A stretch of 42,002 bases of DNA from a virus (Duplodnaviria; Heunggongvirae; Uroviricota; Caudoviricetes): IMG/VR virus record IMGVR_UViG_2563366918_000005. The stretch is one strand, 5' to 3'. This document shows positions 23,353 through 40,745 of the stretch, piece by piece; the first letter of the stretch is position 1; every line of letters starts with the position of its first letter. The notes under the pieces were generated by a model. The model ran no database searches. It had not been told where the DNA came from and saw nothing but the letters and a program-made list of their open reading frames with translations. The translations under genes and the position numbers were made by a program.

Positions 23353-23649
23353 TCACTCCTGTTCACTGGCCTCTTTGGCCATCTTCAAATACTGTTCAGG
23401 GCAATGCGCCATAACGCGCTGAAACAGTTCCAGCGCCAGATTGCGTTGCCCCTCATTAAACGCCATTGCCATAGCGTCCATCGGTGAGATAGCGGAAAAC
23501 ACACGGCCTTTCTCCAGCACCGACCAGACAACGCGACGCCCCTGTTCACTGCTCATGACAAAGCGAATGTCATCAATTTCACGCTGCGCCATGTCACGTT
23601 GCTTACGGGCGTTTTCTTCTTTCAGTTGATCGTCTTCGTAATCTGTCAT
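23353..23649 (-). CDS. hypothetical protein between portal and scaffold
   Basis: 98 aa. ATGA coupling to the portal stop. Confidence 0.55.
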   Translation of the reverse strand: MTDYEDDQLKEENARKQRDMAQREIDDIRFVMSSEQGRRVVWSVLEKGRVFSAISPMDAMAMAFNEGQRNLALELFQRVMAHCPEQYLKMAKEASEQE

Positions 23650-25325
23650 TGTGATTGCCCACCCTGACCACTAACTGCATTCGCCATAGCTGACAACACA
23701 CTCGGATCCGAAGTTTTAGCTTCGCTTAGCGTCTTGGCACCCTGTGCCGCAGCCATCCCCATCGCCATCATTTGTTGCTGCTGTTGCTGCTGTGCCCGTT
23801 GCTGGCGAGCCTGCTCAACCTGTTCCTGCGGAACAATGACGGTTGGAGACACTCCAGACATATCAGCGAATGCATCGATTGCCTGATCAACGTTGAGTTT
23901 GTCGAGAGCTTCTGGTTTCGCTTGCGCAAGTTGACCAATGAAGTTGACCGTAGACGCCAGACTGGACAGGCCGATAGACTTCTGCGCCTGAGCCATGACG
24001 GAAATGTATTCGACCTTCAGGGGCATACCTTCCATCGCGTCAGGCGGGGGCGGCAGCATGTTTTTACGCACCATCATCGAGAAAGAGCGGTCAATGAGAG
24101 GATTAAGACATTCGTCGTTCAGACGCTCCAGAACCGGCCCCAACATCAGAAGTTTTTCTTCTTTCATTTCGATCACCGCTTCAACAGGCATCGAGCGGGT
24201 ATTGATGTTCTGCAACATCATGAACAGATCGACAAAGTAGGCGCTGTTAATGATTTGACGAGTGTCCTGAATGTCTGCCACCAAATCTGCTGTACTGGGG
24301 TTAACCAGATAAGCAGGCCTGAAGCCATCCTGACCAGTAATCTGATCGATATACGTGATGTCGCCAGGAAGAAGGGAGGCGCGCTGATTCTTGAGGGAAG
24401 TCGGAGCAACCATCGGCGGATTGGTGGCTTTATCAATCAACTGCGACTTGCGCTTCTGGAGAAGCTGCAATGCCTTAACAGATCCAAGCGCCAGCATACC
24501 CGGGCATGATGATCCATAAACATCTTCGCCGTTAACTTCCCAGCGCGGAGCCATAATTGGAAACTCATCGAATCCGGACTCACGCAACAACTTGTCGTTA
24601 TCGCCACCAACCTCGTAATAAACCGATTTGAATGGCTTGTTCTTGCTATCCAGCTTCGATGTATCGCGGTCAATGTTCGGGTAAACCGAATGCATCACTT
24701 CAATCCACTTCTCGTAGGTGCCGCTTTCCCACATGCTTTTTACGGATTCGCTGACGTTATTTAGCCCGAACTCCTGAACAAGCTGACGAACAGTCATAGA
24801 GAACTTGCGAAAACAGGTGTCCACACTGCCACGAGGTGAGTTAGCCAGGTAGTAACTGCCTATCGGGAATGGCATTGTGCGAATGATGTCCTCGTCATCC
24901 TCCAGCACTGCCATTGCACCAGTGCTGTATGTGCCGAGGCTTCCGTATAACTGCGGCAGCGACTGATAGAGATTCGACTTATTGAACATATCGTTCATGC
25001 GGTTCTGCACCGCCTCAAGCCACAACTTAACAGGGCCATAATCCATCATTTCAGGATCTGGCGTAGCCAGGCGAAACCACGGACGCGCGGGGCTTGTGAT
25101 GCCTGACATCATGCCGCTGGCGAGAGTGCGCGCCGCCATAGTCCCGGTCGAATCAATAATGCGTGTATTGCGTCGATCGTTACGGTTGACCTCAGAAGTC
25201 AGAAAGCGGGAACCACGTGGGTTGATGTAATCACTCAACTCGCGCCAGTGCGGCTCGAACGACTGACGCTCGCTTTCAAGTTGTGCGAACTGTTTGTTCA
25301 ATCGCTCTTTAGTTGTTTCCGCCAT
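23646..25325 (-). CDS. portal protein (podovirus head-to-tail connector type)
   Basis: 559 aa. Position and size fit. Gln-rich C-terminus (QQRAQQQQQQQMMAMGMAAAQG) is typical of T7-like connectors. Confidence 0.8.
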   Translation of the reverse strand: MAETTKERLNKQFAQLESERQSFEPHWRELSDYINPRGSRFLTSEVNRNDRRNTRIIDSTGTMAARTLASGMMSGITSPARPWFRLATPDPEMMDYGPVKLWLEAVQNRMNDMFNKSNLYQSLPQLYGSLGTYSTGAMAVLEDDEDIIRTMPFPIGSYYLANSPRGSVDTCFRKFSMTVRQLVQEFGLNNVSESVKSMWESGTYEKWIEVMHSVYPNIDRDTSKLDSKNKPFKSVYYEVGGDNDKLLRESGFDEFPIMAPRWEVNGEDVYGSSCPGMLALGSVKALQLLQKRKSQLIDKATNPPMVAPTSLKNQRASLLPGDITYIDQITGQDGFRPAYLVNPSTADLVADIQDTRQIINSAYFVDLFMMLQNINTRSMPVEAVIEMKEEKLLMLGPVLERLNDECLNPLIDRSFSMMVRKNMLPPPPDAMEGMPLKVEYISVMAQAQKSIGLSSLASTVNFIGQLAQAKPEALDKLNVDQAIDAFADMSGVSPTVIVPQEQVEQARQQRAQQQQQQQMMAMGMAAAQGAKTLSEAKTSDPSVLSAMANAVSGQGGQSQ

Positions 25326-25973: not shown

Positions 25974-26050
25974 GTGGCATTAGCTCAGTTGGACAGAGCA
26001 ACCGCCTTCTAAGCGGTTGGTCGCAGGTTCGAATCCTGCATGCCACGCCA
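25974..26050 (+). tRNA. tRNA-Arg (anticodon UCU, reads AGA)
   Basis: 77 nt. Acceptor GTGGCAT/ATGCCAC, D-arm GCTC/GAGC, anticodon stem ACCGC/GCGGT with loop CTTCTAA (TCT at 26008-26010), T-arm GCAGG-TTCGAAT-CCTGC, discriminator G, encoded CCA. Resembles E. coli argU. Confidence 0.93.
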
Positions 26051-26093
26051 GAATCACGCCTAAGGACCGTGATGCCAGAAGTTCCAGGTGCTT

Positions 26094-26135
26094 GGCGGTG
26101 ATAGTTTCCCTTGAAGGACTATCACCGCCCTTTTT
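26094..26135 (+). terminator. strong rho-independent terminator after the tRNA
   Basis: 12-bp stem GGCGGTGATAGT / ACTATCACCGCC, 12-nt loop, then CTTTTT. Confidence 0.8.
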
Positions 26136-26213
26136 ACAGCAGGACGCCATTGCGATGACTTCATGCTGTAAACCCGTGCAGCCACGGAAGGCATAACTCA
26201 TTGCTTCCAGTTC

Positions 26214-26237
26214 GCCCGGTTCGCCGGGCATTTTTTT
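26214..26237 (+). terminator. second rho-independent terminator
   Basis: GCCCGG-ttcg-CCGGGC-A-TTTTTTT. Confidence 0.7.
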
Positions 26238-26252
26238 GCTTGATGACCGCAA

Positions 26253-26269
26253 ATTACCTTAAAGGTATA
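26253..26269. promoter_or_regulatory. operator-like site ATTACCTTAAAGGTATA overlapping a TATAAT hexamer (26266-26271)
   Basis: Left half perfect, right half GGTATA. -35-like ATGACC at 26243-26248, 17-nt spacer. Confidence 0.5.
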
Positions 26270-26551
26270 ATCATGAAAAACTTCAAGGTAATTAGCATGT
26301 TTGAATCGTTCAAAGAGCTGTTTTTATCTACTGCCAATACTGCCGTGAATCGAGCCAAAAACCCTGTGCTTGGTGCTTTTGTTATGTCCTGGTGCGCCTT
26401 CAACTGGAAATCAATTCTTTATCTATTTTTTAGCAAATCAAACATAATAGATAAAATTTCATATATCTCAGATAACAGCACATGGAAAACTGTTATGTTT
26501 TATCCATGCTTATCTGTAATTGCTATCTGCTGCCTAGGTAATGACTCCAAC

Positions 26552-27055
26552 TTACTGATAGTGTTTTATGTTCAGATAATGCCCGATGACCTTGTCATGC
26601 AGCTCCACCGATTTTGAGAACGACAGTGACTTCCGTCCCAGCCTTGCCAGATGTTGTCTCAGATTCAGGTTATGCCGCTCAATTCGCTGAGTGTAACGCT
26701 TGCTGATTACGTGCAGCTTTCCCTTCAGGCGGGATTCATACAGCGGCCAGCCATCCGTCATCCATACCACGACCTCAAAGGCCGACAGCAGGCTTAGAAG
26801 ACGCTCCAGTGTGGCCAGAGTGCGTTCACCGAATACGTGCGCAACAACCGTCTTCCGGAGCCTGTCATACGCGTAAAACAGCCAGCGCTGGCGCGATTTA
26901 GCCCCGACGTATCCCCACTGTTCGTCCATTTCCGCGCAGACGATGACGTCACTGCCCGGCTGTATGCGCGAGGTTACCGACTGCGGCCTGAGTTTTTTAA
27001 ATGGCGGAAAATCGTGTTGAGGCCAACGCCCATAATGCGGGCGGTTGCCCGGCAT
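26552..27055 (-). CDS. insB: IS1 InsB reading frame (expressed as InsAB-prime by -1 frameshift)
   Basis: 167-aa ORF with ...[21 protein letters not shown]...[11 protein letters not shown]..., recognised as IS1 InsB. Confidence 0.93.
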
Positions 27056-27249
27056 CCAACGCCATTCATGGCCATATCAATGATTTTCTGGTGCGTACCG
27101 GGTTGAGAAGCGGTGTAAGTGAACTGCAGTTGCCATGTTTTACGGCAGTGAGAGCAGAGATAGCGCTGATGTCCGGCGGTGCTTTTGCCGTTACGCACCA
27201 CCCCGTCAGTAGCTGAACAGGAGGGACAGCTGATAGAAACAGAAGCCAC
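26974..27249 (-). CDS. insA: IS1 InsA
   Basis: 91 aa [43 protein letters not shown]..., recognised as IS1 InsA. Confidence 0.95.
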
Positions 27250-27864
27250 TGGAGCACCTCAAAAACACCATCATACACTAAATCAGTAAGTTGGCAGCAT
27301 CACCTGCTGCCTATTACCATGGGTAAACAATATCATTAACGTATGGCAAGCAAAGCCTCTTGATAATAATGACTCAATCGAAAATCACCTGAAGGCAAGA
27401 AAAATCCAGCGTGAAACAAGACTGCAGAGGTTATTGGCTAAAAAAGATGTTACATACGACAAAGTTAAGACTGGCGCGGAAAAAGACATCCAAGAGATGA
27501 AAGAAGAGATTATTCGATCAAAGAATAGTATGGGGGAATTGACTGCCGAGTTGAAAGCTAAAGATGACGAATTGAGATCCGCCAGTGCTCAGTTAGCAGC
27601 TCTAAATCATTCATTAAAAGAGATATCGGAAACTCTTGGAAGAATGAATGAGGCATATAAGACCCTCCAAAATGATTTCGACGAATACAAACTCAAATAC
27701 CCTGAAAAATCTCAAATAAAAAGCCTTGAACTTGGCAACGGCCAAACAATTAGCAACTTTTTGGAGCAACACAACTTATCCGGATTAAAATCTGGTAAGC
27801 CAAACGTTTTTAATAACTTTGGTGTTCTATCTGGATTATCAGGTTTCGAGGATAAAAATAAAGA

Positions 27865-29340
27865 CTAAGCATATGGATCGTACTCGGTAAGCGCCTTGCC
27901 TTGCTGGTTCTGCTGCCCGGGAAGTCGCAGGCGCTTTGACACCGGGAAAGCAAACGTCAGCAGTAGCGCATCGCCTTTACCAGGCGAACGCCCAAGTCGT
28001 TCTTTGATATCTTCCTTCGGTTCGATAACGATTTTACCGTCCACGCGAACTTTGTACTCTGCCGCCGACAGATCGTCCGCTGTTTCCTGGTCATCCAGCA
28101 TCCCGCCCAACCTCAGCCATGTCTTGCATGAGTTGAACATCTCCCCGCGCTTGTTGAGCATCTGAGGGTCAGTTGACGCACCACCGAACGGAACAAGTTG
28201 CCATGTGCGCCCCCAGCCGTCACCGATTGACTTCAGACCGGTTCCGTAACCGAAGTCGATGAACACCGCGTCAGCCTGATACTGGTCTTCAAAGTCAGCG
28301 ATACGCTTCGCCATAATCAGATCGTCAGTGGTCTTGTTGCCAGTCCATAGCACCTTACTATGCAACCCCTGCCGCAGGTATATCACCGCGTCATCAACGC
28401 CTGAATATGCCGGGTCAACACCGATTATCACCGGAGCATGTGCCACCTGCGCAGCGGTTACCACCCGTTTCATTGCCTCATCAGTAAGACCGGTAGGGAT
28501 AAACTGCAATTCAGATGCATCAGGGAATATGCCGCGCACACGGATTTTAACGAAGTCGCTGTCTTCCCCGTAGTCATCAACCCATTTCTGCAACTGCTGT
28601 TTGTTAGTACCTTCCACCGTCCGGCTGTCAATCTGCGCAGTTTTCCAGCGGTGTTTGTATTTGCGGAAACATTCGCGAAAACGCCCGGTATTACGTGTAG
28701 GGTTTCCGAACGCCACCCAGATAATCTCAGTGTCTTCGTCCGTAAGCGCACCCTCAGCAACTTCCCACACCAGATCCGCAATGTTCGACGCTTCATCGAA
28801 TACCACGATGATGCGTTTGCGCTCGTTGTGTAGTCCGGCGAATGCCTCAGTGTTGTGCTCAGACCAGGGGATTGCGTCAGCTCGCCACCGCTTGTCGTGC
28901 CCAGGATCATTGCTGTACATCGCGGTAGCGGTACAGGTAAACCAGTCTTTCGTGATAGCAAGGTTCGACCACTTGATAATTTCCGGCCAGGTCTTCGTTC
29001 GTAGCTGGTTGTCGGTGTTGGCGGTCACCACGACCTTACAATCCTCGCAAGTGGACATGCCCCAGTTGATCAGCATTGAGATGAATGCGGATTTACCAAT
29101 ACCGTGACCAGAAGCACGTGCCAGCATAAGCGGCTGATAACGCGTCTCTGGATTCTGCAGGTGATCACGTATCTCTCGGAACGCATCGGCCTGCCACTGA
29201 CGTGGGCCGGTAGCATGTGCCAGTTCAGTCCCCTCTTCCCCCCACGGGAACGCATAGAGGGCATAGCCAAGCGGATCGTGAGTGAACCCTGCAATATCCT
29301 CGATTAACTGCTCTTCAGGAGATAACGCTGTATCTGTCAC
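27865..29340 (-). CDS. terminase large subunit
   Basis: 491 aa, GTG start. Walker A SGHGIGKS. Acidic motif IIVVFDEAS. Follows the small-subunit gene with a 4-nt overlap. Confidence 0.88.
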   Translation of the reverse strand: MTDTALSPEEQLIEDIAGFTHDPLGYALYAFPWGEEGTELAHATGPRQWQADAFREIRDHLQNPETRYQPLMLARASGHGIGKSAFISMLINWGMSTCEDCKVVVTANTDNQLRTKTWPEIIKWSNLAITKDWFTCTATAMYSNDPGHDKRWRADAIPWSEHNTEAFAGLHNERKRIIVVFDEASNIADLVWEVAEGALTDEDTEIIWVAFGNPTRNTGRFRECFRKYKHRWKTAQIDSRTVEGTNKQQLQKWVDDYGEDSDFVKIRVRGIFPDASELQFIPTGLTDEAMKRVVTAAQVAHAPVIIGVDPAYSGVDDAVIYLRQGLHSKVLWTGNKTTDDLIMAKRIADFEDQYQADAVFIDFGYGTGLKSIGDGWGRTWQLVPFGGASTDPQMLNKRGEMFNSCKTWLRLGGMLDDQETADDLSAAEYKVRVDGKIVIEPKEDIKERLGRSPGKGDALLLTFAFPVSKRLRLPGQQNQQGKALTEYDPYA

Positions 29341-29933
29341 TGATTACCATCCTGACGTTCTTTGAGTCGCTTCCTGGCTGCTGCTATGCGATCAGCAATT
29401 GTCACATTCACATTAACATCCAGACGTTCTTTGAACGCGTTGACATCAACATGCTTACCAATCAGCTCAAGGTTCTTCACCTTGTCAGGCCATTTAATTT
29501 TTTTGAGGATTGTCTCTATCGAATCCTCGTTCATGTTCATGATGGTCGATGACAAATCAAAGCCACTAAGCGTAGTGCGCCAGATTTTCGGCCACTCACG
29601 GATTGGTTTAAGGCTCCCATCGTCGTTGAGGATGTCGATCACGTCCATCTGGTCGATCTGCACCAGGCGCATGAGAACGTAATCAGCACTGACGCGCATT
29701 CGTTTGTTGCGCTCCTCCATCAACTCGGCAATCCGTTTTTGAATGCGTTCATCGCGCATCATGACACTGGCTTTAACTGCCGCTGTATTTGGGGAGAATC
29801 CTGCGTTAATCGCTGCCTGAGTCTGGTTTTCAGGCGTTTTGATGTATGACTGGCAATAAGCCTCCTGCATTGCTGTTAGTGGCTTAAATTGCGTTGATTT
29901 GCGTTTATAGGTTTTAGGTTCAGCAGGCATCAT
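29337..29933 (-). CDS. terminase small subunit
   Basis: 198 aa from MMPAEPKTYKRKSTQFKPLTAMQEAYCQSYIKTPENQTQAAINAGFS (HTH-like N-terminus typical of the Terminase_2 family). The longer TTG start at 30011 would run through the operators and terminator and is rejected. Confidence 0.8.
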   Translation of the reverse strand: MMPAEPKTYKRKSTQFKPLTAMQEAYCQSYIKTPENQTQAAINAGFSPNTAAVKASVMMRDERIQKRIAELMEERNKRMRVSADYVLMRLVQIDQMDVIDILNDDGSLKPIREWPKIWRTTLSGFDLSSTIMNMNEDSIETILKKIKWPDKVKNLELIGKHVDVNAFKERLDVNVNVTIADRIAAARKRLKERQDGNQ

Positions 29934-29966
29934 AACCACCGTGGTAATAGTTACCGTTGTGGTAAT
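29932..29966. promoter_or_regulatory. two abutting operators ATAACCACCGTGGTAAT (29932-29948) and GTTACCGTTGTGGTAAT (29950-29966) over the terS start
   Basis: Same 17-bp family, 1-bp gap. The first overlaps the terS ATG ATG. Confidence 0.65.
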
Positions 29967-29976
29967 AGTACCATGC

Positions 29977-30002
29977 AAAATAAAGCCGCCATAGTTGGCG
30001 GC
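29977..30002 (-). terminator. rho-independent terminator between early-left genes and terS
   Basis: On the - strand: GCCGCC-aactat-GGCGGC followed by TTTATTTT. Confidence 0.7.
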
Positions 30003-30051
30003 AGTATTCAAAACCCATCAAATTCATCATGCATAATCTACTCGTGACATG

Positions 30052-30390
30052 TCACACTATTAATTTCGTTTCATGCCAGCCTTTAGTCACCCAGCATTGC
30101 GAGTCACCATTACACGGGCATGAATTAACTGGAACTCTCTCGCCGCACTTACCGCAACATTTTCTGCTGATCGATTTTATACGCCCGCGCACGCGTGCAT
30201 CATCCTGGCGGATCAGTAACGCTATATACTCACCAAATTCGTAAGGCGCACGCCCGGGGCGACGCGTGGCACAGTTACGCTCCAGCATTTCAATTTCCTG
30301 AGCATCAAGCACAATTTCCAGCTTACGCACACCAGATGCAGCTTGTCTGGCTCTCTGAGCGGCTTTGCGCTCTGCTGCTGATTTAGCCAT
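30052..30390 (-). CDS. hypothetical protein with basic helical N-terminus and Cys-rich C-terminus (candidate regulator)
   Basis: 112 aa. N-terminus MAKSAAERKAAQRARQAASG. C-terminal CCGKCGERVPVNSCPCNGDSQC. Last early-left gene before the late terminator. Confidence 0.55.
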   Translation of the reverse strand: MAKSAAERKAAQRARQAASGVRKLEIVLDAQEIEMLERNCATRRPGRAPYEFGEYIALLIRQDDARVRGRIKSISRKCCGKCGERVPVNSCPCNGDSQCWVTKGWHETKLIV

Positions 30391-30736
30391 TCTGATTTTC
30401 CTGCATCATGAGGAAGACAATCATGGCGGCGCGGAGAACATTTTCATGCTCATGCTCCCAAATATGGTTGGCAGAAGCACCGTGCAAACCGCTTTCGTTC
30501 CAGTCCCAGAGAATGTTAACTCCGTTATCAGCAATAATCGGCCATGAGGCGCTCGGATCATTGCAGTAGTCAGGTAAAGGGTTTAATGGCTCGAAAGTTG
30601 TATCAGCATTTCCGTAATACCATTTGTTGGTGTTATTCCCTGACGTTTCCGGTTTACATGCCCAAAGGCCTTTAAAAATTATGTCTCCTACCATTCTGTT
30701 AATTTCAAAATCACTTAACTGTGAATAGTCCATCAT
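30383..30736 (-). CDS. NinX-like (DUF2591-type) phage protein
   Basis: 117 aa. N-terminus MMDYSQLSDFEINRMV recalls the NinX/DUF2591 family (memory). Confidence 0.55.
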   Translation of the reverse strand: MMDYSQLSDFEINRMVGDIIFKGLWACKPETSGNNTNKWYYGNADTTFEPLNPLPDYCNDPSASWPIIADNGVNILWDWNESGLHGASANHIWEHEHENVLRAAMIVFLMMQENQNG

Positions 30737-31437
30737 TTCGCCACCTTCGGAGGTTCTGGTAGCGGCATCCAGTGGGTTACACCGCCAATTGGCTCATCGT
30801 CGTCGTACTCCAATGCGGCTATATAGAACCCGTCACGACGAGAATAAGAAATCCCTGACATTACAATGCCATCCGAAACAACAATAATGTCACCCGTTTC
30901 TTCCGGCATTCTCTCACTACAGCTTATCCAACCATCCGGAGTTACCGGAGAGTTGCCCGACAGCTTGTTCAACTTGTAAGTCTGGCTTACAGGTTTGGCA
31001 CCATGAAGCATGGCGTCGCTCCGCTCTATGCCATCCAGCGCGATTCGCAGTGCCTGAATTGTGGTAATGCTATCGTTTGGGGCTATTCCATATCGCTCGA
31101 ATACAGCGATATGACCGCGCATAATCTCAGGCGTAAGCTCTTTGTAAGCATAAGCAAGCGACCCTGATGCCTCATCCGGCACAACCGACGCAGGCGCGGC
31201 AGCATAAACAGGAATAACGTCCGCTTGCTCTTTATTGCTTTCATCCGTTAAAGCCCAGAATAATTTCCCGGCCGGATGTTTGAAAATATAAGCAACTGGT
31301 TCTGCTTCCAGCGATGCCAGAGCAATTCGTGCCAGTTCTTCCGCTTCTTCTGCTGGCAGTACAACGTTGCTACCAGGTCCGTATGTTTCGCGCCACTGTT
31401 TGATTGTCAGTAGTCGCTCTTTGGTAATAGTGGTCAT
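30733..31437 (-). CDS. hypothetical early protein with DUF551-like C-terminal domain
   Basis: 234 aa. C-terminal WISCSERMPEE...GVTHWMPLPEPP pattern is typical of DUF551 (memory). Confidence 0.5.
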   Translation of the reverse strand: MTTITKERLLTIKQWRETYGPGSNVVLPAEEAEELARIALASLEAEPVAYIFKHPAGKLFWALTDESNKEQADVIPVYAAAPASVVPDEASGSLAYAYKELTPEIMRGHIAVFERYGIAPNDSITTIQALRIALDGIERSDAMLHGAKPVSQTYKLNKLSGNSPVTPDGWISCSERMPEETGDIIVVSDGIVMSGISYSRRDGFYIAALEYDDDEPIGGVTHWMPLPEPPKVAK

Positions 31438-31439
31438 AG

Positions 31440-31631
31440 CTATTTCACCTTAATCTCAACATTTCGCAGCTTTAGCTCTACTGGCAGGTCTGACTTTCCG
31501 GTTAATGCTAATGCGAGATTTTCTGGAGTAATGAGAGCCGTTATTGTTTTCCCCATCGCCAGACGAATAGTCATTCGTATCTCGCGATCGTCACATGCTC
31601 CCGGTCGAACAATTGAGATTTGTCCGTTCAT
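31440..31631 (-). CDS. small hypothetical protein
   Basis: 63 aa from MNGQISIVRPG (AAGGAGAG SD; start 1 nt after the upstream TGA). The longer start at 31664 is rejected. Confidence 0.5.
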   Translation of the reverse strand: MNGQISIVRPGACDDREIRMTIRLAMGKTITALITPENLALALTGKSDLPVELKLRNVEIKVK

Positions 31632-31632
31632 A

Positions 31633-32118
31633 TCACTCTCCTTTGATGCGAATGCCTGTTGCAATGCTGTTTATGATGCTGTCAGTGCATGGGGTAGAAA
31701 GCTGGGCATCTCCAACAATTTTCATGACCTCAACATCTGCATATCGAATACCGAGGTGTATCAGACCGGCTATGCCTGACTTAAGCCGAGCATTTTCCAT
31801 AAATAGAACTTTTGCCCGCTGTTTTTCTGCTTCAAGCTCAACGCGCAGCTTCCCTACCGTTAGCGCAATTTCCTCGTTCTCCTGGTCGCGGCGTTTGATG
31901 TATTGCTGGTTTCTTTCCCGTTCATCCAGTAGTGCCAGCACGGTTTCTGGTCCGGCCAGAAATTTGAAGGCGTTGAGCGCATCAATATCCACACCGTAAT
32001 CTTTAAGTTCCTGTTCGCTTATCAGATCATCATCAACTGGCAACATTAACAGGCGTTCCATTGCCGGAATTGCACGTTCTGCCGCCTCACGCAGTGCCTG
32101 ATAGTTAATTTTGGTCAT
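31633..32118 (-). CDS. Ead/Ea22-like early protein
   Basis: 161 aa. MTKINYQALREAAERA ... PETVLALLDERE pattern and coiled coil are typical of the Ead/Ea22 family (memory). Confidence 0.5.
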   Translation of the reverse strand: MTKINYQALREAAERAIPAMERLLMLPVDDDLISEQELKDYGVDIDALNAFKFLAGPETVLALLDERERNQQYIKRRDQENEEIALTVGKLRVELEAEKQRAKVLFMENARLKSGIAGLIHLGIRYADVEVMKIVGDAQLSTPCTDSIINSIATGIRIKGE

Positions 32119-32119
32119 A

Positions 32120-32419
32120 TCACATCACCCTGAAGCCGTTGCATTTACGTAAAAAATCGCAGATATAGCCCTTCATTTTTTTATGCCAATCTCGATCATT
32201 CCCATTGCACCAACCATCAGGTGGAGTCCAGTTTTCTATCAGAGCAGCCATTTTCTTTGCTTTCGCCGGAGTAGCTGTTGCGGTATCGCAGTAATGACGA
32301 GTGTCAACCAACGCATCCATACCATCGATATCAAGTACGCAAAACCATGTGTGATTCGGAATTCCTACAGGTGGTATTTGTTGCCCACGTCGGCGTTTAT
32401 CAATGAGATATACACTCAC
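32120..32419 (-). CDS. hypothetical early protein
   Basis: 99-aa ORF, tightly packed in the operon. Confidence 0.5.
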   Translation of the reverse strand: MSVYLIDKRRRGQQIPPVGIPNHTWFCVLDIDGMDALVDTRHYCDTATATPAKAKKMAALIENWTPPDGWCNGNDRDWHKKMKGYICDFLRKCNGFRVM

Positions 32420-33000
32420 TGGTTGCCTCCTTTGCGAAGCTGGGCAGCAAAGTCACGGATAGTGTCATCAAGGTCTGGGCACAACAGATGGTCAGCAAAC
32501 ATCTCTACCCCCTGCGCACGTACTTCAGCCAGAAAAGTGTCGGTGGCTGGGGTTTCGATATTAGGTAGAAGCGCATAATCGCAAATCGTATCGATCGCAG
32601 GATCACAACAGTCATCCTCGTTGCGTGGTCGTTCGCCAACCTTCGTTGACGATTGCATGATGATTCCCCAGCAAATACTATCGACCTCTTCGCTCCATCC
32701 ATCGCAAGCATCACCGCGATAGTCGTCGATTGCAGCCTCAGCCGATTCGATAGCTTCCTCAGCAGTTTTGTGCCATTCGAAATTATGCTCAGAGCCATAT
32801 GAGAAATATGAATGTCCCGCCTTCAGCCCCGCATTCTCCGCTGCCATCGCATTAGCACGCACCAGTTGCACTTCCAGTTGCGTTGCCAAATCGCTGATCA
32901 GCTTTGCCACACTACGCATATCAACGGCACCACATTCTGCTTTCAGTTCCGAAGCCATCTCATGCCCGGCGGCAACTAACCCTTTGATATTACTTTCCAT
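32416..33000 (-). CDS. hypothetical early protein (Ea22-like N-terminus)
   Basis: 194 aa, acidic, Cys/Asp-rich centre. ATGA coupling downstream. Confidence 0.5.
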   Translation of the reverse strand: MESNIKGLVAAGHEMASELKAECGAVDMRSVAKLISDLATQLEVQLVRANAMAAENAGLKAGHSYFSYGSEHNFEWHKTAEEAIESAEAAIDDYRGDACDGWSEEVDSICWGIIMQSSTKVGERPRNEDDCCDPAIDTICDYALLPNIETPATDTFLAEVRAQGVEMFADHLLCPDLDDTIRDFAAQLRKGGNQ

Positions 33001-33061
33001 CTTTACCCTCGCTTATCCACATAACTTATTGATTACATTGATAACTAAAAAGATCGTCGAT

Positions 33062-33406
33062 TCAGAACTCTTCGATGTTCCAGCCACCACCTGCTTTCTT
33101 TGGTTTAACCGTTACCCCGATGATTCGGAACGGATACTGATCTGCGGCGACTTTGGTTTTCACCCTGGCGTCGTCGGTCCAGAAACCTTTCACTTCGTGC
33201 AGTTCCATCTCGCCGGTGGCGAGCATCACAGCAAAATCGGGCGTATAGAACGTGTTGTCAGCTAACCGCAGCTTGATACCCTCAAATCGATACCAGACGA
33301 TTTCTCCTGCACGTTTACGCAGCTCAAGGTGCTGGCAATACGCAGATTCTGTTTTGTTCATCTGTCCTGTTTTGAGTCGACCAAGAGCCTGTATCTGTTT
33401 TCTCAT
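33062..33406 (-). CDS. DUF1064-like protein, probable PD-(D/E)xK nuclease
   Basis: 114 aa. YTPDF ... ELHEVKG fits a PD...ExK motif. Confidence 0.55.
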   Translation of the reverse strand: MRKQIQALGRLKTGQMNKTESAYCQHLELRKRAGEIVWYRFEGIKLRLADNTFYTPDFAVMLATGEMELHEVKGFWTDDARVKTKVAADQYPFRIIGVTVKPKKAGGGWNIEEF

Positions 33407-33408
33407 GA

Positions 33409-33487
33409 TTTACCCCTGAGGTAATTAAAAACCACATAAGACACGAAATCAATAGATTTTAGAATATTTTATTACCTAACAGGTAAT
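33409..33487. promoter_or_regulatory. two operators TTTACCCCTGAGGTAAT (33409-33425) and ATTACCTAACAGGTAAT (33471-33487)
   Basis: Same family, 62 bp centre-to-centre. The first abuts the DUF1064-like start codon. Confidence 0.65.
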
Positions 33488-33498
33488 TATCGAAACGT

Positions 33499-33518
33499 AA
33501 AAAAATGCGCTATCGCGC
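33499..33518 (-). terminator. short GC hairpin plus T7 after the P-like gene
   Basis: On the - strand: GCGC-gata-GCGC-A-TTTTTTT. The stem is only 4 bp. Confidence 0.45.
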
Positions 33519-33523
33519 TGGTA

Positions 33524-34309
33524 TTACTTGATAAATCCTGCCGCCTTTCCTCGCCTGTATTCCTCCATCAGCCACTGCGCCGGTGTTATTCCCCCAAGGG
33601 TGGCGGCGTTAGGCATGCACCCGAAACTTCGCCCTGGTGGATGGTAAACGTCTCTCCCTGTGTCCGGAGGCGTACTCATGGGTTCTGGCTTTGCCTGTAT
33701 GCTGATCACCGGATCGGGTATCTGCTGTCCGGAAGCCACCTTTTTCGCCCAATCATCGAGCAGCCTGCGCGCGTGTTTCTCAACCTCTATCTCGCTAAGC
33801 TGGCGCTGATACATTGCACGGCGGGTATCACATACGACCCAGTACATAACCGGATGCCGCCACGGGAATCTTTCGGGACCACCAGGATATAAACTTTTTT
33901 CCTTGCTGTACCGGTGAAACTCCGTCATCACATCGTCAATGGTGACGCCAAGAACCATCTTGCTGTCTTTGCACCACTTGATGAATTGCCCTGGCGACGG
34001 CCAGAACGGAGAATCACTGGCGCGGGCGTGGCGCATACCAGCAGAAACCTGTTCACGGGTTCGGATCCCCCCTTCGGCAAACGCAGCAATCCACTGCTGT
34101 TTTGCAGCAACTTCCTGCTCTGGCGTCTTCAGGTTGGTTACCACTGCCGCCGGAAACAGTTGTTTCAACTGTTTGAAAAGGGCATCAACAAGCCTCTCTG
34201 CTGACATGTTCACTACGTTGTCATTGTTGACGTACTGATGCTCATAACCTGACATGCGAGAAAGGGCTTCTCCGTCACGGTTTTGTATTGCGGTAAAAAC
34301 GTTGTTCAC
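33524..34309 (-). CDS. lambda P-like replication (helicase-loader) protein
   Basis: 261 aa from GTG 34309. SD GGGAGGA 6 nt upstream; GTGA overlap with the O-like stop. Aligns by eye with lambda P (…WIAAFAEGGIRTREQVSAGMRHARASDSPFWPSPGQFIKWC versus lambda …WVLAFRENGITTMEQVNAGMRVARRQNRPFLPSPGQFVAWC). ATG 34324 is the alternative start. Confidence 0.85.
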   Translation of the reverse strand: MNNVFTAIQNRDGEALSRMSGYEHQYVNNDNVVNMSAERLVDALFKQLKQLFPAAVVTNLKTPEQEVAAKQQWIAAFAEGGIRTREQVSAGMRHARASDSPFWPSPGQFIKWCKDSKMVLGVTIDDVMTEFHRYSKEKSLYPGGPERFPWRHPVMYWVVCDTRRAMYQRQLSEIEVEKHARRLLDDWAKKVASGQQIPDPVISIQAKPEPMSTPPDTGRDVYHPPGRSFGCMPNAATLGGITPAQWLMEEYRRGKAAGFIK

Positions 34310-35097
34310 AAGAAATCCTCCCATGCTTCAGGGCTGTTCCAGTGCGGAACGTTGTTATCAGGTAATGTTGATTGCTTCTGTCTGCTAATCTGCAGCCGCC
34401 TTGCCAGCTTCTGCTCCCACTGCGCCTGATGGTATGCCTTACCCTCAGCCATCCAGTAAATTCTGAACTCTGCAAGTTCCTGTGCCGTTGGCAGACTGTC
34501 CAGGTAGATCCCCTGCAATGAGCTTTTCCGAAGAAAGTCATCTGATGGTTGCCATTGTTCATGCATGACAAATTTGCCTAATTGCCCTGGCCCACCAGGA
34601 GGAACAAAGTTATTCATCACGGCGTTGTTTGCGCCGGGGTCATGAGGCACAGAATCCCCGCTTTTTGTCCTGCTCTCCCTCTCTTGGTTAAATGACTGGT
34701 TATATGACTGGTTCTGGATCCCGTTTTTGGGATCATTCAACATCCCGTTTTTGGGTATATTCCCGTTTTCGGTAACATTACCGTTTTCGGGTTCATTACC
34801 CCCTTCCCGGTTGCCTTTAATGTTCCCGTTTTTGGTTATATTAAGAGAGAAAACCCGCACTCTTTTCGTCGCTCCCTTTCTCTCTCCGGTATCTGAAATA
34901 AGCCCCATTTTCATGAGCGATATAAGCCCGGCCTGCACGGTTTTTTTATTCAGGCAAGTGTCTTTAACGAGGCGTTCTATGCTGGGGTAGCAGAGGTTAT
35001 ATTCATCGGCTCTGTCAGCCATCGAGAGCAGTATGAGCTTTAATGACGAGCTACCTGGATCTGTCTCCCAGGCCCAATCTGTTGCATGTCTGCTCAT
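34306..35097 (-). CDS. replication initiator (lambda O-like role; winged-helix N-terminus, iteron-encoding middle)
   Basis: 263 aa. N-terminal HTH-like LKLILLSMADRADEYNLCYPSIERLVKDTCLNKKTVQAGLISL. Repeated NG/PKNG peptide encoded by the iterons. Immediately upstream of the P-like gene. Confidence 0.75.
   Translation of the reverse strand: MSRHATDWAWETDPGSSSLKLILLSMADRADEYNLCYPSIERLVKDTCLNKKTVQAGLISLMKMGLISDTGERKGATKRVRVFSLNITKNGNIKGNREGGNEPENGNVTENGNIPKNGMLNDPKNGIQNQSYNQSFNQERESRTKSGDSVPHDPGANNAVMNNFVPPGGPGQLGKFVMHEQWQPSDDFLRKSSLQGIYLDSLPTAQELAEFRIYWMAEGKAYHQAQWEQKLARRLQISRQKQSTLPDNNVPHWNSPEAWEDFL
34719..34835. repeat. origin iterons: 5-6 copies of TCCCGTTTT(T/C)GG(G) at 18-24 bp spacing inside the initiator gene
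   Basis: Copies at 34719, 34743, 34761, 34779, (34805, degenerate) and 34824. Adjacent direct repeat ATGACTGGTT x2 (34692-34714). Confidence 0.75.
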
Positions 35098-35112
35098 GAT
35101 TAATCTCCGCTA

Positions 35113-35313
35113 TCAGCTTGAATGTTGTGGGGAGGAATTAATCATGATCTGCTTAATCTCTGCCCTGATACGACGGTTTGATTCCATGGTGCACTCAACA
35201 CAGTGTCCGTTGTAAACCCAGCGTTCACTGTCATGTCCGTGCTTACATGTTTTTCCGGTGTAGTAGCGTTTAAGTCCGCGCTTTGCGGCATCAATACGTG
35301 TAATGATTTCCAT
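35113..35313 (-). CDS. small Cys/His-containing early protein (start uncertain)
   Basis: 66 aa from MEIITRIDAAKRGLKRYYTGKTCKHGHDSERWVYNGHCVECT (CxHxH...CxxC). No strong SD. Longer alternatives up to 35376. Confidence 0.5.
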   Translation of the reverse strand: MEIITRIDAAKRGLKRYYTGKTCKHGHDSERWVYNGHCVECTMESNRRIRAEIKQIMINSSPQHSS

Positions 35314-35392
35314 GGTAAGCCCTGTTATTAGTATTGGGATTACGGTCATTTTGTGCTGACACAAAAAAAATATCAACCAGATTTGGTTTTTT

Positions 35393-35409
35393 ATTACCTT
35401 TGAGGTACG
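35393..35409. promoter_or_regulatory. operator ATTACCTTTGAGGTACG
   Basis: Same family. Just downstream (- direction) of the terminator at 35419-35442. Confidence 0.55.
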
Positions 35410-35418
35410 AATAGATAT

Positions 35419-35442
35419 GAAAAGACCGCCGGGTGGCGGTCT
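35419..35442 (-). terminator. rho-independent terminator after the Cro-like gene
   Basis: On the - strand: AGACCGCC-accc-GGCGGTCT followed by TTTTCAT. Confidence 0.7.
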
Positions 35443-35463
35443 ACAGAGGGTTGTGGCTGGATA

Positions 35464-35694
35464 TCATGAGTAGAAGAAGTATGCCAGTTCTGCTTTTGAG
35501 CGCAGCCATTGTCTTGTTTTACAGGCTTTAAAAAGCCCATTCATCAATACTTTACCTGGCATTTTGCGCTTACCTGTTAAGTGAGTCTGGATATAGTGAC
35601 TCGTCGTTCCGGCTTCCTGTGCGAAGGCTTCACGCTCATCCGGAGTAAGTGCAAGCCAGTGCTTTTTGAAATCGAAATGTCCGTTATCGCTCAT
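35464..35694 (-). CDS. Cro-like HTH regulator
   Basis: 76 aa. First gene of the leftward early operon, divergent from the repressor. HTH-like EAFAQEAGTTSHYIQTHLTG. Confidence 0.65.
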   Translation of the reverse strand: MSDNGHFDFKKHWLALTPDEREAFAQEAGTTSHYIQTHLTGKRKMPGKVLMNGLFKACKTRQWLRSKAELAYFFYS

Positions 35695-35729
35695 AGCTAT
35701 TGCCTGATATTTATTTCAGATAATAAATA

Positions 35730-35794
35730 TTCACCCATAAGGTAACAAAAATCAAGGATAGTTACCTATGAGGTGCATTTACCTGTTGGGTAAT
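35730..35794. promoter_or_regulatory. immunity operator cluster: TTCACCCATAAGGTAAC (35730), GTTACCTATGAGGTGCA (35761), TTTACCTGTTGGGTAAT (35778)
   Basis: Three sites in the 154-bp divergent region. The last two abut directly. Candidate leftward promoter TTGATT-17-GAATAT overlaps the first site. Confidence 0.7.
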
Positions 35795-35848
35795 ATTGCT
35801 TTAAATTGAATCATCTACTGATTCATATATGAGGCGATTTTCCAGAAA

Positions 35849-36433
35849 ATGAAAAGTATCCAGGACGTCCGCAGGCAAAATCTCAACGACTTGATCGACC
35901 GTGAATTCAATGGTGTTCAGACGCGGATGGCAGAAAAACTTGGAACTCAGGCAAATCTGGTAAACCGCTGGGCTCTTGGCAAGAAGGTTATCGGCGACCA
36001 GGTTGCACGAAAAATTGAAGCTGCCGCCAATAAACCCCGTAACTGGCTTGATATTGATCGCTCGCTTTCTCAGGAGGGTTTTCAGCCTGTCGGCCCGAGC
36101 GATATAGGTCAGCTGGCGGCTCACAACCTGGAACGCTGGATGAGCGAAAGCCGCGACCTTTCAACGCAGGGAAAACTACACCGCGCATCCGGCGTCGCCC
36201 AGGTGACAATCAGCCGCCTGTTAAACAATGAGGTCAGCGTTTCCATTTCCACCCTGGAGAATGTTGCATCCGCATTCGGGCGTCACGGCTATGAATTACT
36301 GATTCACCCGCACGACCCTGCGACCATCAACTATGATCGCTCGCGCTACGCATTGTTACCCGAAACCGAGAAAGCAAAGATCGAAAGTTACATTGAATTT
36401 GTCATCAACCAGAACGAAAAAAACAAACAATAA
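35849..36433 (+). CDS. prophage repressor with two tandem HTH (XRE-type) domains and no S24 peptidase domain
   Basis: 194 aa. HTH 1 is TRMAEKLGTQANLVNRWALG. HTH 2 is KLHRASGVAQVTISRLLNN. Only ~35 aa follow the second HTH. No SD before the ATG (possibly leaderless). Confidence 0.75.
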   Translation: MKSIQDVRRQNLNDLIDREFNGVQTRMAEKLGTQANLVNRWALGKKVIGDQVARKIEAAANKPRNWLDIDRSLSQEGFQPVGPSDIGQLAAHNLERWMSESRDLSTQGKLHRASGVAQVTISRLLNNEVSVSISTLENVASAFGRHGYELLIHPHDPATINYDRSRYALLPETEKAKIESYIEFVINQNEKNKQ

Positions 36434-36453
36434 AATCATATTTTTCAGTAAGT

Positions 36454-36478
36454 AAGCCGCCAGAAGGCGGCTTTTTTA
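36454..36478 (+). terminator. rho-independent terminator after the repressor gene
   Basis: AAGCCGCC-agaa-GGCGGCTT followed by TTTTATT. Confidence 0.8.
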
Positions 36479-36489
36479 TTGCCTATTCG

Positions 36490-36568
36490 ATTACCTAATG
36501 GGTAATTTTTTTAACTCATATCTATTGACATCAAACCAGATACGCATAATTATTACCTCAACGGTAAC
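36490..36568 (+). promoter_or_regulatory. rightward early promoter region: operator ATTACCTAATGGGTAAT (36490), -35 TTGACA (36525-36530), operator ATTACCTCAACGGTAAC (36552)
   Basis: Perfect -35. The -10 is ambiguous (TAATTA / AATTAT, 36547-36553). Operators flank the promoter. Confidence 0.6.
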
Positions 36569-36586
36569 AGACCGAGGTAACAAGTT

Positions 36587-36739
36587 ATGCAGTGGAAAAT
36601 CATCAACGGTTGGTACTGCGTTACTGCATGCGGATTCATGAGCTGGAAGTTCCGCACCTTACAGGAAGGCATTAAGTGGGCTTTCGTCAGCAAAGAAGCT
36701 CGCGATGTGGCCAACGATAACGAGATATGGGAGGGCTGA
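36587..36739 (+). CDS. unlisted 50-aa early protein
   Basis: Below the ORF-track cutoff. GAGGT 8 nt upstream. MQWKIINGWYCVTACGFMSWKFRTLQEGIKWAFVSKEARDVANDNEIWEG. Its stop is 2 nt before the next ATG. Confidence 0.5.
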   Translation: MQWKIINGWYCVTACGFMSWKFRTLQEGIKWAFVSKEARDVANDNEIWEG

Positions 36740-36741
36740 TA

Positions 36742-37041
36742 ATGAACGTTAATCAGCAGAAAAATCTTCAAAAAATCATGCTGGCATTCGACAAGGACTA
36801 CCGCCTGTCAGAACAGCTATATGACCGACAAGTTGAACTGATTGAGAGTATCCGGCTTCATCAACTGGCATCAACTTTCGACGTTGTAACAGTTAAAGGC
36901 GTTCGCCAGGAAGTACTGGAGGCCGCTAAAGACAGCCCTGAGTTCGAAGAACTAATGGATGCCTACCGGCGCGAGGCAATGGCAATTATCGCCCGCTGGG
37001 ATCTGGCTGATCAGATTGATGGGCAGAGGGACGCGGCATGA
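36742..37041 (+). CDS. hypothetical early protein preceding the recombination genes
   Basis: 99 aa from MNVNQQKN (GGGAGGG SD). Confidence 0.55.
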   Translation: MNVNQQKNLQKIMLAFDKDYRLSEQLYDRQVELIESIRLHQLASTFDVVTVKGVRQEVLEAAKDSPEFEELMDAYRREAMAIIARWDLADQIDGQRDAA

Positions 37042-37859
37042 ATCCGGGAATTTATTTCGATATCAGCAACGAGGACTACCACGCCGGTGACGGCGTGAGT
37101 AAGTCGCAGCTAGATATGGTGGCTAAGAACCCTGCCCTTCTGAAATGGGTGAAGGCTGCTCCGGAAGACGAAGAGAAGAAGTCTGCACTGGACATGGGTA
37201 CTGCTCTGCACTGTCTGCTTCTGGAACCTGGAGAGTTTGACAAACGCTTCATCGTTTCACCGAAATTCGATCGTCGGACAAAACAAGGTAAAGCTGACGA
37301 AGAGGCATTTATTCGTGATGTAGCGGATATGGGGATTTCGGTACTTGATGCAGAGCAGTGGCGAAAACTGGAGCTGATGCGTGATAGCGCAATGGCTCAC
37401 CCGGCGGCACGCTGGATGTTGGAAGCACCTGGTTACTGCGAAGCATCAATGTACTGGAACGATGAAGATACGGGTGAGTTGTGCCGAATTCGTCCAGACA
37501 AATGGCTGAACGAGCACAACGTGATCGTCGACGTGAAAAAGGTTGCAGATATGGACCGTTTTGCACGCCACATCGAGGAGTTCCGCTACCACGTGCAGGA
37601 CGCAATGTACCGCGAAGGCGCAATGAGGGTTACTGGTCAGCCACATGGTTTTTTCTTTCTTGCCGTGAGCGAAAGCATTGATTGTGGTCGGTATCCGGTA
37701 CGCGTGTTCGAGCTGGATGCGCCGGATGTCGATGCCGGGCACGCTCTGTTCCGCCGGGATCTGAATACCTATCACGAATGCCGCATCAACGATGAGTGGG
37801 GCGGAGTGGAAATTATTAAACGCCCTGACTGGGCACGTAAACAGGATATGTACGTATGA
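37038..37859 (+). CDS. PD-(D/E)xK exonuclease (RecE-C-terminal / exonuclease VIII-like)
   Basis: 273 aa. N-terminal ISNEDYHAGDGVSKSQL, later IRPDK ... IVDVKK motif. Partnered with the annealase gene. Confidence 0.7.
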   Translation: MNPGIYFDISNEDYHAGDGVSKSQLDMVAKNPALLKWVKAAPEDEEKKSALDMGTALHCLLLEPGEFDKRFIVSPKFDRRTKQGKADEEAFIRDVADMGISVLDAEQWRKLELMRDSAMAHPAARWMLEAPGYCEASMYWNDEDTGELCRIRPDKWLNEHNVIVDVKKVADMDRFARHIEEFRYHVQDAMYREGAMRVTGQPHGFFFLAVSESIDCGRYPVRVFELDAPDVDAGHALFRRDLNTYHECRINDEWGGVEIIKRPDWARKQDMYV

Positions 37860-38737
37860 GCAATGATATCGCAATCACATCACAACCAGGCGCAACTGTA
37901 GGTACTGCTGCGGCAATCTTCAGCCCGGAGGGCATGAATCAACTGGTGCGTTTCGCGGAGTTGATGTCACAAAGCAAAGCGACTGTACCGAAACATCTTG
38001 AAGGCAAACCTGCCGATTGTCTGGCGGTGACCATGCAGGCGGCACAGTGGGGAATGAATCCTTTCGCCGTGGCGCAGAAAACGCATGTGGTAAACGGAAC
38101 GTTAGGCTACGAAGCACAGTTGGTAAACGCGGTCGTATCCTCTTCCAGCCTGCTAGCGACACGCCTGAATTATCGCTGGAGCGGTGACTGGTCGAATGTT
38201 AACGGCAAAACAGATAAATCACCGAATCTGACGGTAACTGTGTCAGCAGTTCTTAAAGGAGAAGCAGAACCCCGTGAGCTTACCATCAGTATGGCGCAAG
38301 CCGGAGTGCGTAACTCTCCATTGTGGGAACAGGATCCGCGCCAGCAGCTTGCCTATCTTTGCACGAAACGATGGGCTCGCCTGCACGCTCCTGATGTACT
38401 TCTCGGTGTTTACACCCCTGACGAATTACAGGAAACGGCACCGCGCGTTGAGCGAGACATTACTCCGCAAACGACCACTGCTGCGGGAATGAACAGTCTG
38501 ATCAACGCTAAACCAGCGAAAAAGCCTGATGAGCAAACGCGTAAAGCGGATAGCCGTGATCCAGAAGAAATGCTGATGGCCTTTACCAGCGCAGCGATGA
38601 ATTACAGCACTGTCTCCGAACTGGATAAGGCTTACAAATACATTGCACAAAAACTTTCAGATGATGACGAACTGCTGGCAAAAGCCACCGACGTTTACAG
38701 CGTTCGTCGGGAAGAATTAAACGAAACATCTATGTAA
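37856..38737 (+). CDS. RecT/Red-beta family single-strand annealing protein
   Basis: 293 aa. AAQWGMNPF core. The ERDITPQT segment recalls lambda Bet ERDITPVN. Confidence 0.75.
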   Translation: MSNDIAITSQPGATVGTAAAIFSPEGMNQLVRFAELMSQSKATVPKHLEGKPADCLAVTMQAAQWGMNPFAVAQKTHVVNGTLGYEAQLVNAVVSSSSLLATRLNYRWSGDWSNVNGKTDKSPNLTVTVSAVLKGEAEPRELTISMAQAGVRNSPLWEQDPRQQLAYLCTKRWARLHAPDVLLGVYTPDELQETAPRVERDITPQTTTAAGMNSLINAKPAKKPDEQTRKADSRDPEEMLMAFTSAAMNYSTVSELDKAYKYIAQKLSDDDELLAKATDVYSVRREELNETSM

Positions 38738-38786
38738 CCACCACCGCGGCGCCACGCGCGCCGCACTGCAACCAAGAGAGGTATTT

Positions 38787-39035
38787 ATGAAAGGTGCATT
38801 AGGTAAGAAGGAACTCCTGGCGGTGGTGCCACTGTCATGGAGCACTATCGACCGTATGGAGCGCGCAGGGGAATTTCCTAAACGCTGGTATATCACCGAT
38901 AAACGCTGCGCATGGAACCGTGATGAAGTTGAGCGTTGGCTTGATGAACGTCAGGCAGCAAGCCCGGCAGAGTTCCAGGGTAAAAAACCTCCTGTTCAGC
39001 AACGTGTATATCGTCCCGTGAGCAACGCGGCATGA
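38787..39035 (+). CDS. AlpA/Xis-like small HTH protein (probable excisionase)
   Basis: 82 aa. LSWSTIDRMERAGEFPKRWYITDKRCAWNRDEVERWL is typical of the AlpA/MerR-type excisionase family. Confidence 0.65.
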   Translation: MKGALGKKELLAVVPLSWSTIDRMERAGEFPKRWYITDKRCAWNRDEVERWLDERQAASPAEFQGKKPPVQQRVYRPVSNAA

Positions 39036-39192
39036 GTGTGCTGCTAAGGCACTGGAGCAAATGGTCAGGATGGTACTTATTCCTGGCCTCTGTTTCTGCA
39101 TGGCTTTATCTGCTGGCATTAATTTTCAGAGAGGGTTGGATTAAGTGAGAAAGTTAAGCCGACTTGAAAAATATCACATGAACAAGGTTTCA

Positions 39193-39444
39193 ATGCGCAG
39201 CCCTTCAAAGGTTGTTGCCGTTACTCCTGCGGCGATAGAGATCGAAAAACGCGCGATTGAAAGAGAGAAAAAAGGGCAGTTCCGCATTGCCGCCCACCTT
39301 TGGCTTCAGTGTATGGATGTTGCTTCTGGTGATGTTGAGCGTGCAAGGATCGCGGTTCGCAGGGACCAATGTATCACAAAAGGTAACGGCCTTCGCCGTG
39401 GCGACTATAGCGGCATAGGATGTTGCGGGGTGGTTTATGACTAA
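39193..39444 (+). CDS. PerC-family transcriptional activator-like protein (start uncertain, 39145-39193)
   Basis: EKKGQFRIAAHLWLQCMDVASGDVERARIAVRRDQC matches the PerC/Pch pattern (G.YRRAA..W..........ER......R...C) from memory. AAGG SD before the ATG at 39193. Confidence 0.55.
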   Translation: MRSPSKVVAVTPAAIEIEKRAIEREKKGQFRIAAHLWLQCMDVASGDVERARIAVRRDQCITKGNGLRRGDYSGIGCCGVVYD

Positions 39445-40743: not shown

Positions 40744-40745
40744 AA

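Follow-up and report, generated by a model that had tools for sequence, protein, structure and literature searches.

An IS1 insertion in a moron of an epsilon15/BPP-1-like prophage and the predicted membrane-protein family of the disrupted gene

The stretch of DNA analysed here, referred to as the window, is the whole 42,002-nt sequence of IMG/VR record IMGVR_UViG_2563366918_000005. It holds one complete prophage between yfgH/yfgI and guaA. In this prophage, an IS1 element interrupts a gene located between a tRNA-Arg gene and the gene of the large terminase subunit. We find that the insertion is recent as judged from its near-identical relatives, that the disrupted gene has the sequence features of a moron, and that the gene belongs to a large family of predicted membrane proteins with a conserved N-terminal module and a hypervariable C-terminus. 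This structural account is almost certain. The intact protein could serve in phage exclusion or abortive infection. We hold this function only tentatively, at somewhat less than an even chance, and the complete explanation with the function included is equally tentative. The features of the region are as follows; TM1 and TM2 denote the first and second predicted transmembrane (TM) helices.

23646-25325, portal gene, late operon, downstream of IS1
25974-26050, plus strand, tRNA-Arg gene (anticodon UCU), left border of the cargo slot
26094-26129 and 26214-26229, plus strand, two terminator-like hairpins, each followed by a T run, between the tRNA gene and the disrupted gene
26243-26271, plus strand, promoter-like site ATGACC-17-TATAAT directly upstream of the gene, containing the palindrome TACCTTAAAGGTA (26255-26267)
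26297-26536, plus strand, 5' part of the disrupted gene, codons 1-80 of the 264-aa product (N-terminal helix, TM1 and most of TM2)
26528-26536, left copy of the target-site duplication, TGCTGCCTA, 9 bp
26537-27304, minus strand, IS1, 768 bp, in the same direction as the prophage late genes
26552-27055, minus strand, insB', intact open reading frame (ORF) of 167 aa overlapping insA
26974-27249, minus strand, insA, 91 aa, intact
27305-27313, right copy of the target-site duplication, TGCTGCCTA, 9 bp
27314-27868, plus strand, 3' part of the disrupted gene, codons 81-264 and stop (end of TM2, long helix/coiled coil and Gly/Ser/Asn tail ending in KNKD)
27865-29340, minus strand, large terminase subunit, right border of the cargo slot, late operon

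The IS1 element and the restored gene

The extent of the element and the perfect 9-bp duplication around it, first given in a preliminary description of this DNA, are found again both by direct reading and by script. The terminal inverted repeats GGTAATGACTCCAACTTACTGAT and GGTGATGCTGCCAACTTACTGAT are imperfect and match at 18 of 23 positions. Both insA and insB' are intact, and the A6C frameshift motif TTTAAAAAAC is present at position 303 of the element. The marks of the IS1 family are a size near 768 bp, imperfect repeats of some 23 bp, an A6C motif for the programmed -1 frameshift from insA into insB', and a duplication of 8-9 bp. The copy shows all of them, and from its sequence it is functional-looking. 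Matches to IS1 in E. coli genomes run into the thousands. The likeness to known IS1 insertions of E. coli and Shigella is complete and includes size, repeats, insA/insB', the A6C site, the 9-bp duplication and the AT-rich target (PMC5009759). No difference from these insertions is seen; the present one is distinctive only by its target gene and its position within the late operon of a prophage. The insertion itself is textbook and routine.

Removal of IS1 and one copy of the duplication restores the gene. When 26273-26536 is joined to 27314-27868 in a scripted reconstruction, the product is 819 nt or 272 codons, free of stops, and six complete E. coli chromosomes carry an uninterrupted gene identical to it at 819/819 nt. 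The proposal that the gene can be reconstructed exactly and in frame is therefore borne out, and with this identity TGCTGCCTA is present as a single copy in the intact allele. The RefSeq name of the intact allele is WP_102779111.1, a hypothetical protein, whose annotated ORF begins at 26273. Near-full-length copies with at least 99% identity are found in 39 complete-genome records, all of them aligned uninterrupted, so that the search for intact alleles returns no disrupted one. At its 3' end, the gene overlaps the stop of the terminase gene by 4 nt. IS1 breaks the protein directly after codon 80, within TM2, and therefore abolishes it.

The length of the product needs a small correction. A 272-codon ORF exists as the preliminary description had it, but the true start is probably the ATG at 26297, giving a product of 264 rather than 272 aa. 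This ATG, with AAGG before it, is the conserved start in an alignment of 12 diverse loci, whereas the ATG at 26273 is unique to the window allele and abuts the -10-like TATAAT, the hexamer of which ends at 26271. PHROG 4780 and most homologues also begin at residue 9 of the 272-codon ORF.

E. coli strain WP8-S17-ESBL-12 (NZ_AP022222.1) carries an IS1-free copy of the same prophage. Positions 1-25000 of the window are 100% identical to it and positions 27314-42002 are 99.8% identical, and the IS1 insertion is the sole sizeable difference between the two copies. The junction of gene and IS1 is absent from 5,426 complete RefSeq E. coli genomes. Because a near-identical IS1-free prophage exists and the junction is absent from this set, the insertion is recent on the comparative evidence, in agreement with the earlier reading.

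The same description went on to suggest possible selection against the gene as a costly one; the cost could be a burden or toxicity to the host. Several truncated forms do occur in the 90%-identity cluster, with lengths of 57, 70, 110, 143, 163 and 181 aa and with chimeras beside them (P0027, P0306-P0318), and one split allele is found in a viral contig (L084). However, intact alleles dominate: while each truncated form occurs on 1-7 contigs, one intact variant by itself is present on 354. Partial genes at contig ends make up many of the short forms, and the 39 records described above are all uninterrupted. The ratio of nonsynonymous to synonymous substitution rates (dN/dS) lies well below 1, which indicates that the gene is normally maintained. 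The moron is also the most AT-rich target locally, with a GC (guanine plus cytosine) content of 0.36-0.41 compared with about 0.52 for the flanks, and IS1 is reported to prefer AT-rich targets (PMC5009759). Given this preference and this composition, selection against a costly gene is unsupported and we consider it quite unlikely. A neutral recent insertion explains the data equally well and is the simpler account. One of these independently truncated or chimeric alleles is a fusion with antisense sequence from the tRNA region.

The element also falls within the late operon, where it separates terminase from portal and follows the direction of late transcription. IS1 is classically polar on downstream genes. 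By analogy, such polarity may lower the expression of the portal, capsid and tail genes here and so cripple the prophage.

The moron and its cargo hotspot

The disrupted gene is on the strand opposite to all structural genes of the prophage and forms the most AT-rich stretch of its neighborhood. It sits between genes that are adjacent in related phages, with its own predicted promoter and terminator and a deviating base composition. By these sequence features it is a moron, i.e. an independent accessory transcription unit. The promoter and terminator calls are made from consensus and conservation. Across 10-12 diverse loci, some of them in unrelated Klebsiella prophages, the promoter-like site is kept along with the gene. 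The two terminator-like hairpins are predicted to insulate the gene as a separate transcription unit, and since they intervene, transcription from the promoter of the tRNA-Arg gene is unlikely. The same arrangement holds in viral contigs, where ORFs on the opposite strand stand on both sides of the gene in 59 of 66 scorable loci. At these loci the GC content of the gene is 0.33-0.45 and that of the flanks 0.47-0.57, which places the gene 10-20 GC points below its surroundings.

Two sequence observations concern the moron and its upstream region. The rare codon AGA accounts for 4/8 Arg codons of the moron, against 16/195 in six structural genes, and the tRNA-Arg(UCU) that reads AGA is located directly upstream of the moron on the same strand. 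Further, the palindrome TACCT-N3-AGGTA, often extended to ATTACCTnnnAGGTAAT, occurs nine times in the window with at most two mismatches, against 0.92 expected. Such 13-nt sites are at 6685, 7065, 25638, 26255, 33473, 35395 and 36554, and seven of the nine occurrences are apparently intergenic on the ORF map. One copy overlaps the -10 element of the moron promoter and accompanies the gene into the unrelated Klebsiella prophages. The palindrome could be an operator or an RNA hairpin.

The slot between the tRNA-Arg gene and the terminase gene is not peculiar to this prophage. A two-flank probe finds it in 506 of 5,426 complete E. coli genomes (about 9%), with inserts of about 140 to 976 nt, and in strain 07_3636 the slot is empty. 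Other cargoes, all in the same orientation, are a Tad2-like gene (PF11195, anti-Thoeris-like), a gene of the N4 gp49/Sf6 gp66 family, two small ORFs and divergent members of the coiled-coil family (loci L088-L091 and L096). One of the occupants is only 23% identical to the window protein, yet belongs to the same family (hhalign E=1.3e-41). In a comparison of two prophages, identity in the flanks remains at 97-98% as far as the start and stop codons; within the gene it drops to 67% before alignment is lost. From this pattern, the slot (25974-27868) is a cargo hotspot with cassette exchange. Klebsiella prophages carry the family in a different slot, between nin-like and replication genes and again on the opposite strand, and at a single Klebsiella prophage position, members 58% and 26% identical alternate.

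The hotspot resembles the morons of lambdoid phages and the defense hotspots of P2/P4 in several respects: its cargo has its own promoter and terminators, low GC content and anti-lytic orientation, is present or absent among near-identical phages, and is replaced by alternative cargoes. It differs in its content, as the tRNA-Arg/terminase-portal slot of epsilon15-like prophages mixes a Tad2-like anti-defense gene with an uncharacterized coiled-coil family. We found no published description of this hotspot in epsilon15-like prophages, and it is newly delineated here. The combination of this family with Tad2-like genes makes it a compact place to mine for phage conflict genes.

The protein family and its possible functions

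A first homologue search gives 177 matches, all in Enterobacteriaceae and all annotated as hypothetical. An exhaustive profile search of 1.8 billion cluster representatives yields 1,763 matches with a cut-off of E<=1e-3 and 299 with E<=1e-10; in most, the alignment starts at residue 1. The only catalogued family that contains the protein is PHROG 4780 (related PHROGs 13369 and 35327), which matches it in full length, with residues 9-272 on profile positions 1-267 of 275 (E=7.5e-137). PHROG 4780 is without functional annotation, and membership provides a label and no mechanism. Across the family, the contexts are prophages or other mobile elements, in some cases with ParA-like, resolvase, helix-turn-helix or TIR genes close by. 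No conserved partner gene is seen across the Escherichia, Klebsiella and distant contexts.

The N-terminal module starts with a short helix, followed by R19-x-K-N-P23 and the hydrophobic helix TM1. Residues R19, P23, G26, W32, N36, W37, P70 and P82 are near-invariant. In TM1, residues G26, F28, S31, W32, N36 and W37 are 98-99% conserved and K38 is usual. A loop of about 20 residues with a small helix (K53) leads to TM2, which is clearly hydrophobic and bracketed by P70 and P82. Basic residues are concentrated before TM1 and after TM2, and the loop is net acidic. This charge distribution favors a cytoplasmic position of both termini, with the two helices as a membrane hairpin. In the AlphaFold2 model built from a 133-sequence alignment, with a predicted local distance difference test score (pLDDT) of 82.8, TM2 runs on as one helix of about 145 residues (63-208), most of which has a pLDDT above 90. 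The model from 43 close sequences is poor (pLDDT 67). The long helix is predicted to form a cytoplasmic coiled-coil stalk. The last 56 residues are disordered in the better model and consist of 37.5% Gly, Ser and Asn. The hydrophobic N-terminal helices, the heptad region and the Gly/Ser/Asn-rich tail of the preliminary description are all real.

Conservation is divided very unevenly along the chain. In the close family, the mean pairwise identity is 77% over residues 1-160 and 17% over the remainder, and distant members have wholly different C-terminal modules. For 264-aa alleles that are co-linear, the dN/dS values are about 0.05 over the N-terminal half and about 0.15-0.5 over the C-terminal half. 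From these substitution patterns, the gene is a maintained protein-coding gene under purifying selection with a fast-evolving tail. The possibility that it is not a real gene is ruled out by dN/dS well below 1 and by hundreds of homologues. Despite the hypervariable C-termini, a short Lys/Asp/Asn-rich motif closes the sequence of many members (KNKD, KDKDKD, NKKD, KKDK, RNQ/HNQ). This hints at a conserved linear motif, for example a degron or a docking site. The value of an otherwise routine IS1 event is that it flagged a family unseen by domain, defense and structure libraries. The family is large, with hundreds of 50%-identity clusters, is restricted to mobile elements and, besides its purifying selection, shows turnover of cassettes at a hotspot.

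The data on the gene, a moron that occupies a cargo hotspot on the anti-lytic strand and has a hypervariable C-terminus, fit a conflict gene. If the protein is an exclusion or abortive-infection factor, the intact form would be made from the prophage in the lysogen, the coiled-coil stalk would drive oligomerization, and the protein would work alone. Recognition of some component of a phage, whether incoming or competing, would fall to the variable cytoplasmic C-terminus. The response would then come from the conserved membrane module, which would permeabilize or depolarize the inner membrane or block a membrane step of infection. A more far-reaching proposal, which we regard as unlikely, is that the family represents an undescribed, widespread single-protein immune module, composed of a membrane executioner (with the invariant Asn-Trp in TM1), a stalk and a swappable C-terminal sensor, in which cassette swaps at prophage hotspots shift the range of excluded phages. 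If an exclusion or abortive-infection role is true, it adds a simple one-gene membrane system, and the natural series of alleles, with a common membrane module and differing C-termini, would be suited to mapping how specificity is encoded.

A functional comparison can be made with SieA of phage P22, the best studied of the inner-membrane exclusion proteins of podoviruses, which has 162-164 aa, three TM helices (four in types B and C; about 160-200 aa) and the motif FxRYPxEAxxFNK (PMC10883804). SieA shares with the window protein the stand-alone inner-membrane nature, the origin in a podovirus prophage, the expression from the prophage and the occurrence of several divergent sequence types (PMC10883804). 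It is shorter, has three TM helices and lacks a coiled coil, and no homology to the window protein is detectable. Membership of the SieA family is rejected, as FxRYPxEAxxFNK is absent in 319 family sequences and the window protein has two hydrophobic helices and a long coiled coil instead. The likeness nevertheless raises the possibility of superinfection exclusion at entry, in which the protein would passively block the DNA-ejection conduit of related podoviruses in the manner of SieA, without killing the cell. The protein is a predicted inner-membrane protein of a podovirus prophage encoded on the strand predicted to be expressed in the lysogen, SieA is likewise small, stand-alone and divergent in its types, and conservation lies in the membrane module rather than the tail. 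However, the TM count and the absent motif set the family apart from SieA, only about 20 residues are predicted to be periplasmic, where ejection proteins act, and the diversifying part is cytoplasmic. An entry block of this kind is improbable.

SLATT-type and two-TM effectors of CBASS, retron and Pycsar systems offer a second comparison. They have in common with the window family an N-terminal two-helix module with polar residues in the membrane, a cytoplasmic helical region and carriage on mobile elements. Unlike them, the window family has no match to a SLATT or other Pfam or PADLOC model in 105 diverse members and is found without a signal-generating enzyme or partner, so that any sensor would have to be its own variable C-terminus. 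A class II (two-TM) holin is excluded. Such holins are below about 150 aa and lie in a lysis cassette by the endolysin, whereas the window gene encodes 264 aa on the opposite strand in the terminase/portal region; the holins and endolysin of the prophage are at its far end, away from the disrupted gene.

Several observations weigh against exclusion or abortive infection as the function of the protein. The first is the Tad2-like anti-defense gene in the same slot, from which it follows that residence in the hotspot cannot separate defense from counter-defense. The protein could be a counter-defense or phage-benefit factor acting against host immunity or competing elements, akin to its Tad2-like slot-mate. 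The Tad2-like (PF11195) and gp49_66-family genes are in the same slot and orientation, and fast diversification of the C-terminus also suits an inhibitor that tracks a host target. Known anti-defense proteins are mostly small and soluble, though, and a 264-aa membrane-anchored protein with a stalk of about 18 nm (from the helix length) is atypical among them. Distant members are also found outside phages, by ParA-like or resolvase genes on other mobile elements. We therefore consider counter-defense quite unlikely.

A further point against exclusion or abortive infection is that no link from experiment or homology connects the family to defense. Pfam, NCBIfam and PADLOC yield only sub-threshold coiled-coil matches for the protein and 105 diverse relatives, in line with the earlier failure to recognize a named family. 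In PADLOC-DB v2.0.0, these are coiled-coil segments of DndD, LmuB, JetC and PbeC (best E=1e-4 for the window protein), and the N-terminal module is unmatched in the 105 members. No Pfam model, including SLATT_1-6, covers the N-terminal module in these members. A sequence-profile search of the PDB gives E=0.036 or worse, all coiled coils, and Foldseek against the PDB and BFVD gives no match at E<=0.001. We found no described homologue in the literature, and the family motifs and WP_102779111 are absent from the DefensePredictor supplements.

The same searches bear on lysogenic conversion without phage conflict, in which a tethered coiled coil would act in envelope stress, cell division or membrane organization. 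The TM anchor with a cytoplasmic coiled coil is reminiscent of scaffolding and division proteins, there are weak matches to PorL/GldL, TraP and the N-terminus of RNase Y, and no defense model matches. These matches, however, cover only the coiled coil and are far under the curated cut-offs, and such extreme allele turnover at a single locus, seen between prophages that are near-identical, is more usual for conflict genes than for modulators with a housekeeping-like role. Lysogenic conversion is somewhat less probable than a block at entry.

Other points against exclusion or abortive infection concern the membrane module and its expression. TM1 is only moderately hydrophobic (Kyte-Doolittle about 1.1-1.2), with the invariant Asn-Trp and a frequent Lys in mid-helix, and because of this polar center, the two-TM topology is a prediction only. 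We infer the expression of the moron in lysogens from its orientation and the predicted promoter, and the palindrome over the -10 region could be a repressor site. With these points considered, the disrupted gene offers a good and testable candidate within a large uncharacterized family of membrane proteins of mobile elements, its function being the inferred part.

The surrounding prophage

The prophage carries a gp10 staple, a Bbp16 cement protein, Bbp19, a T7 gp14-like core protein, the portal, and the small and large terminase subunits. By these markers it is an epsilon15/BPP-1-like podovirus, otherwise intact and integrated beside guaA. It is bordered by yfgH/yfgI at one end and by the integrase and guaA at the other. 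At the border of prophage and host by yfgI, the reference strain has an IS200C transposase gene (L008 40576-41034), and the window is 100% identical there, in the region 1219-1728.

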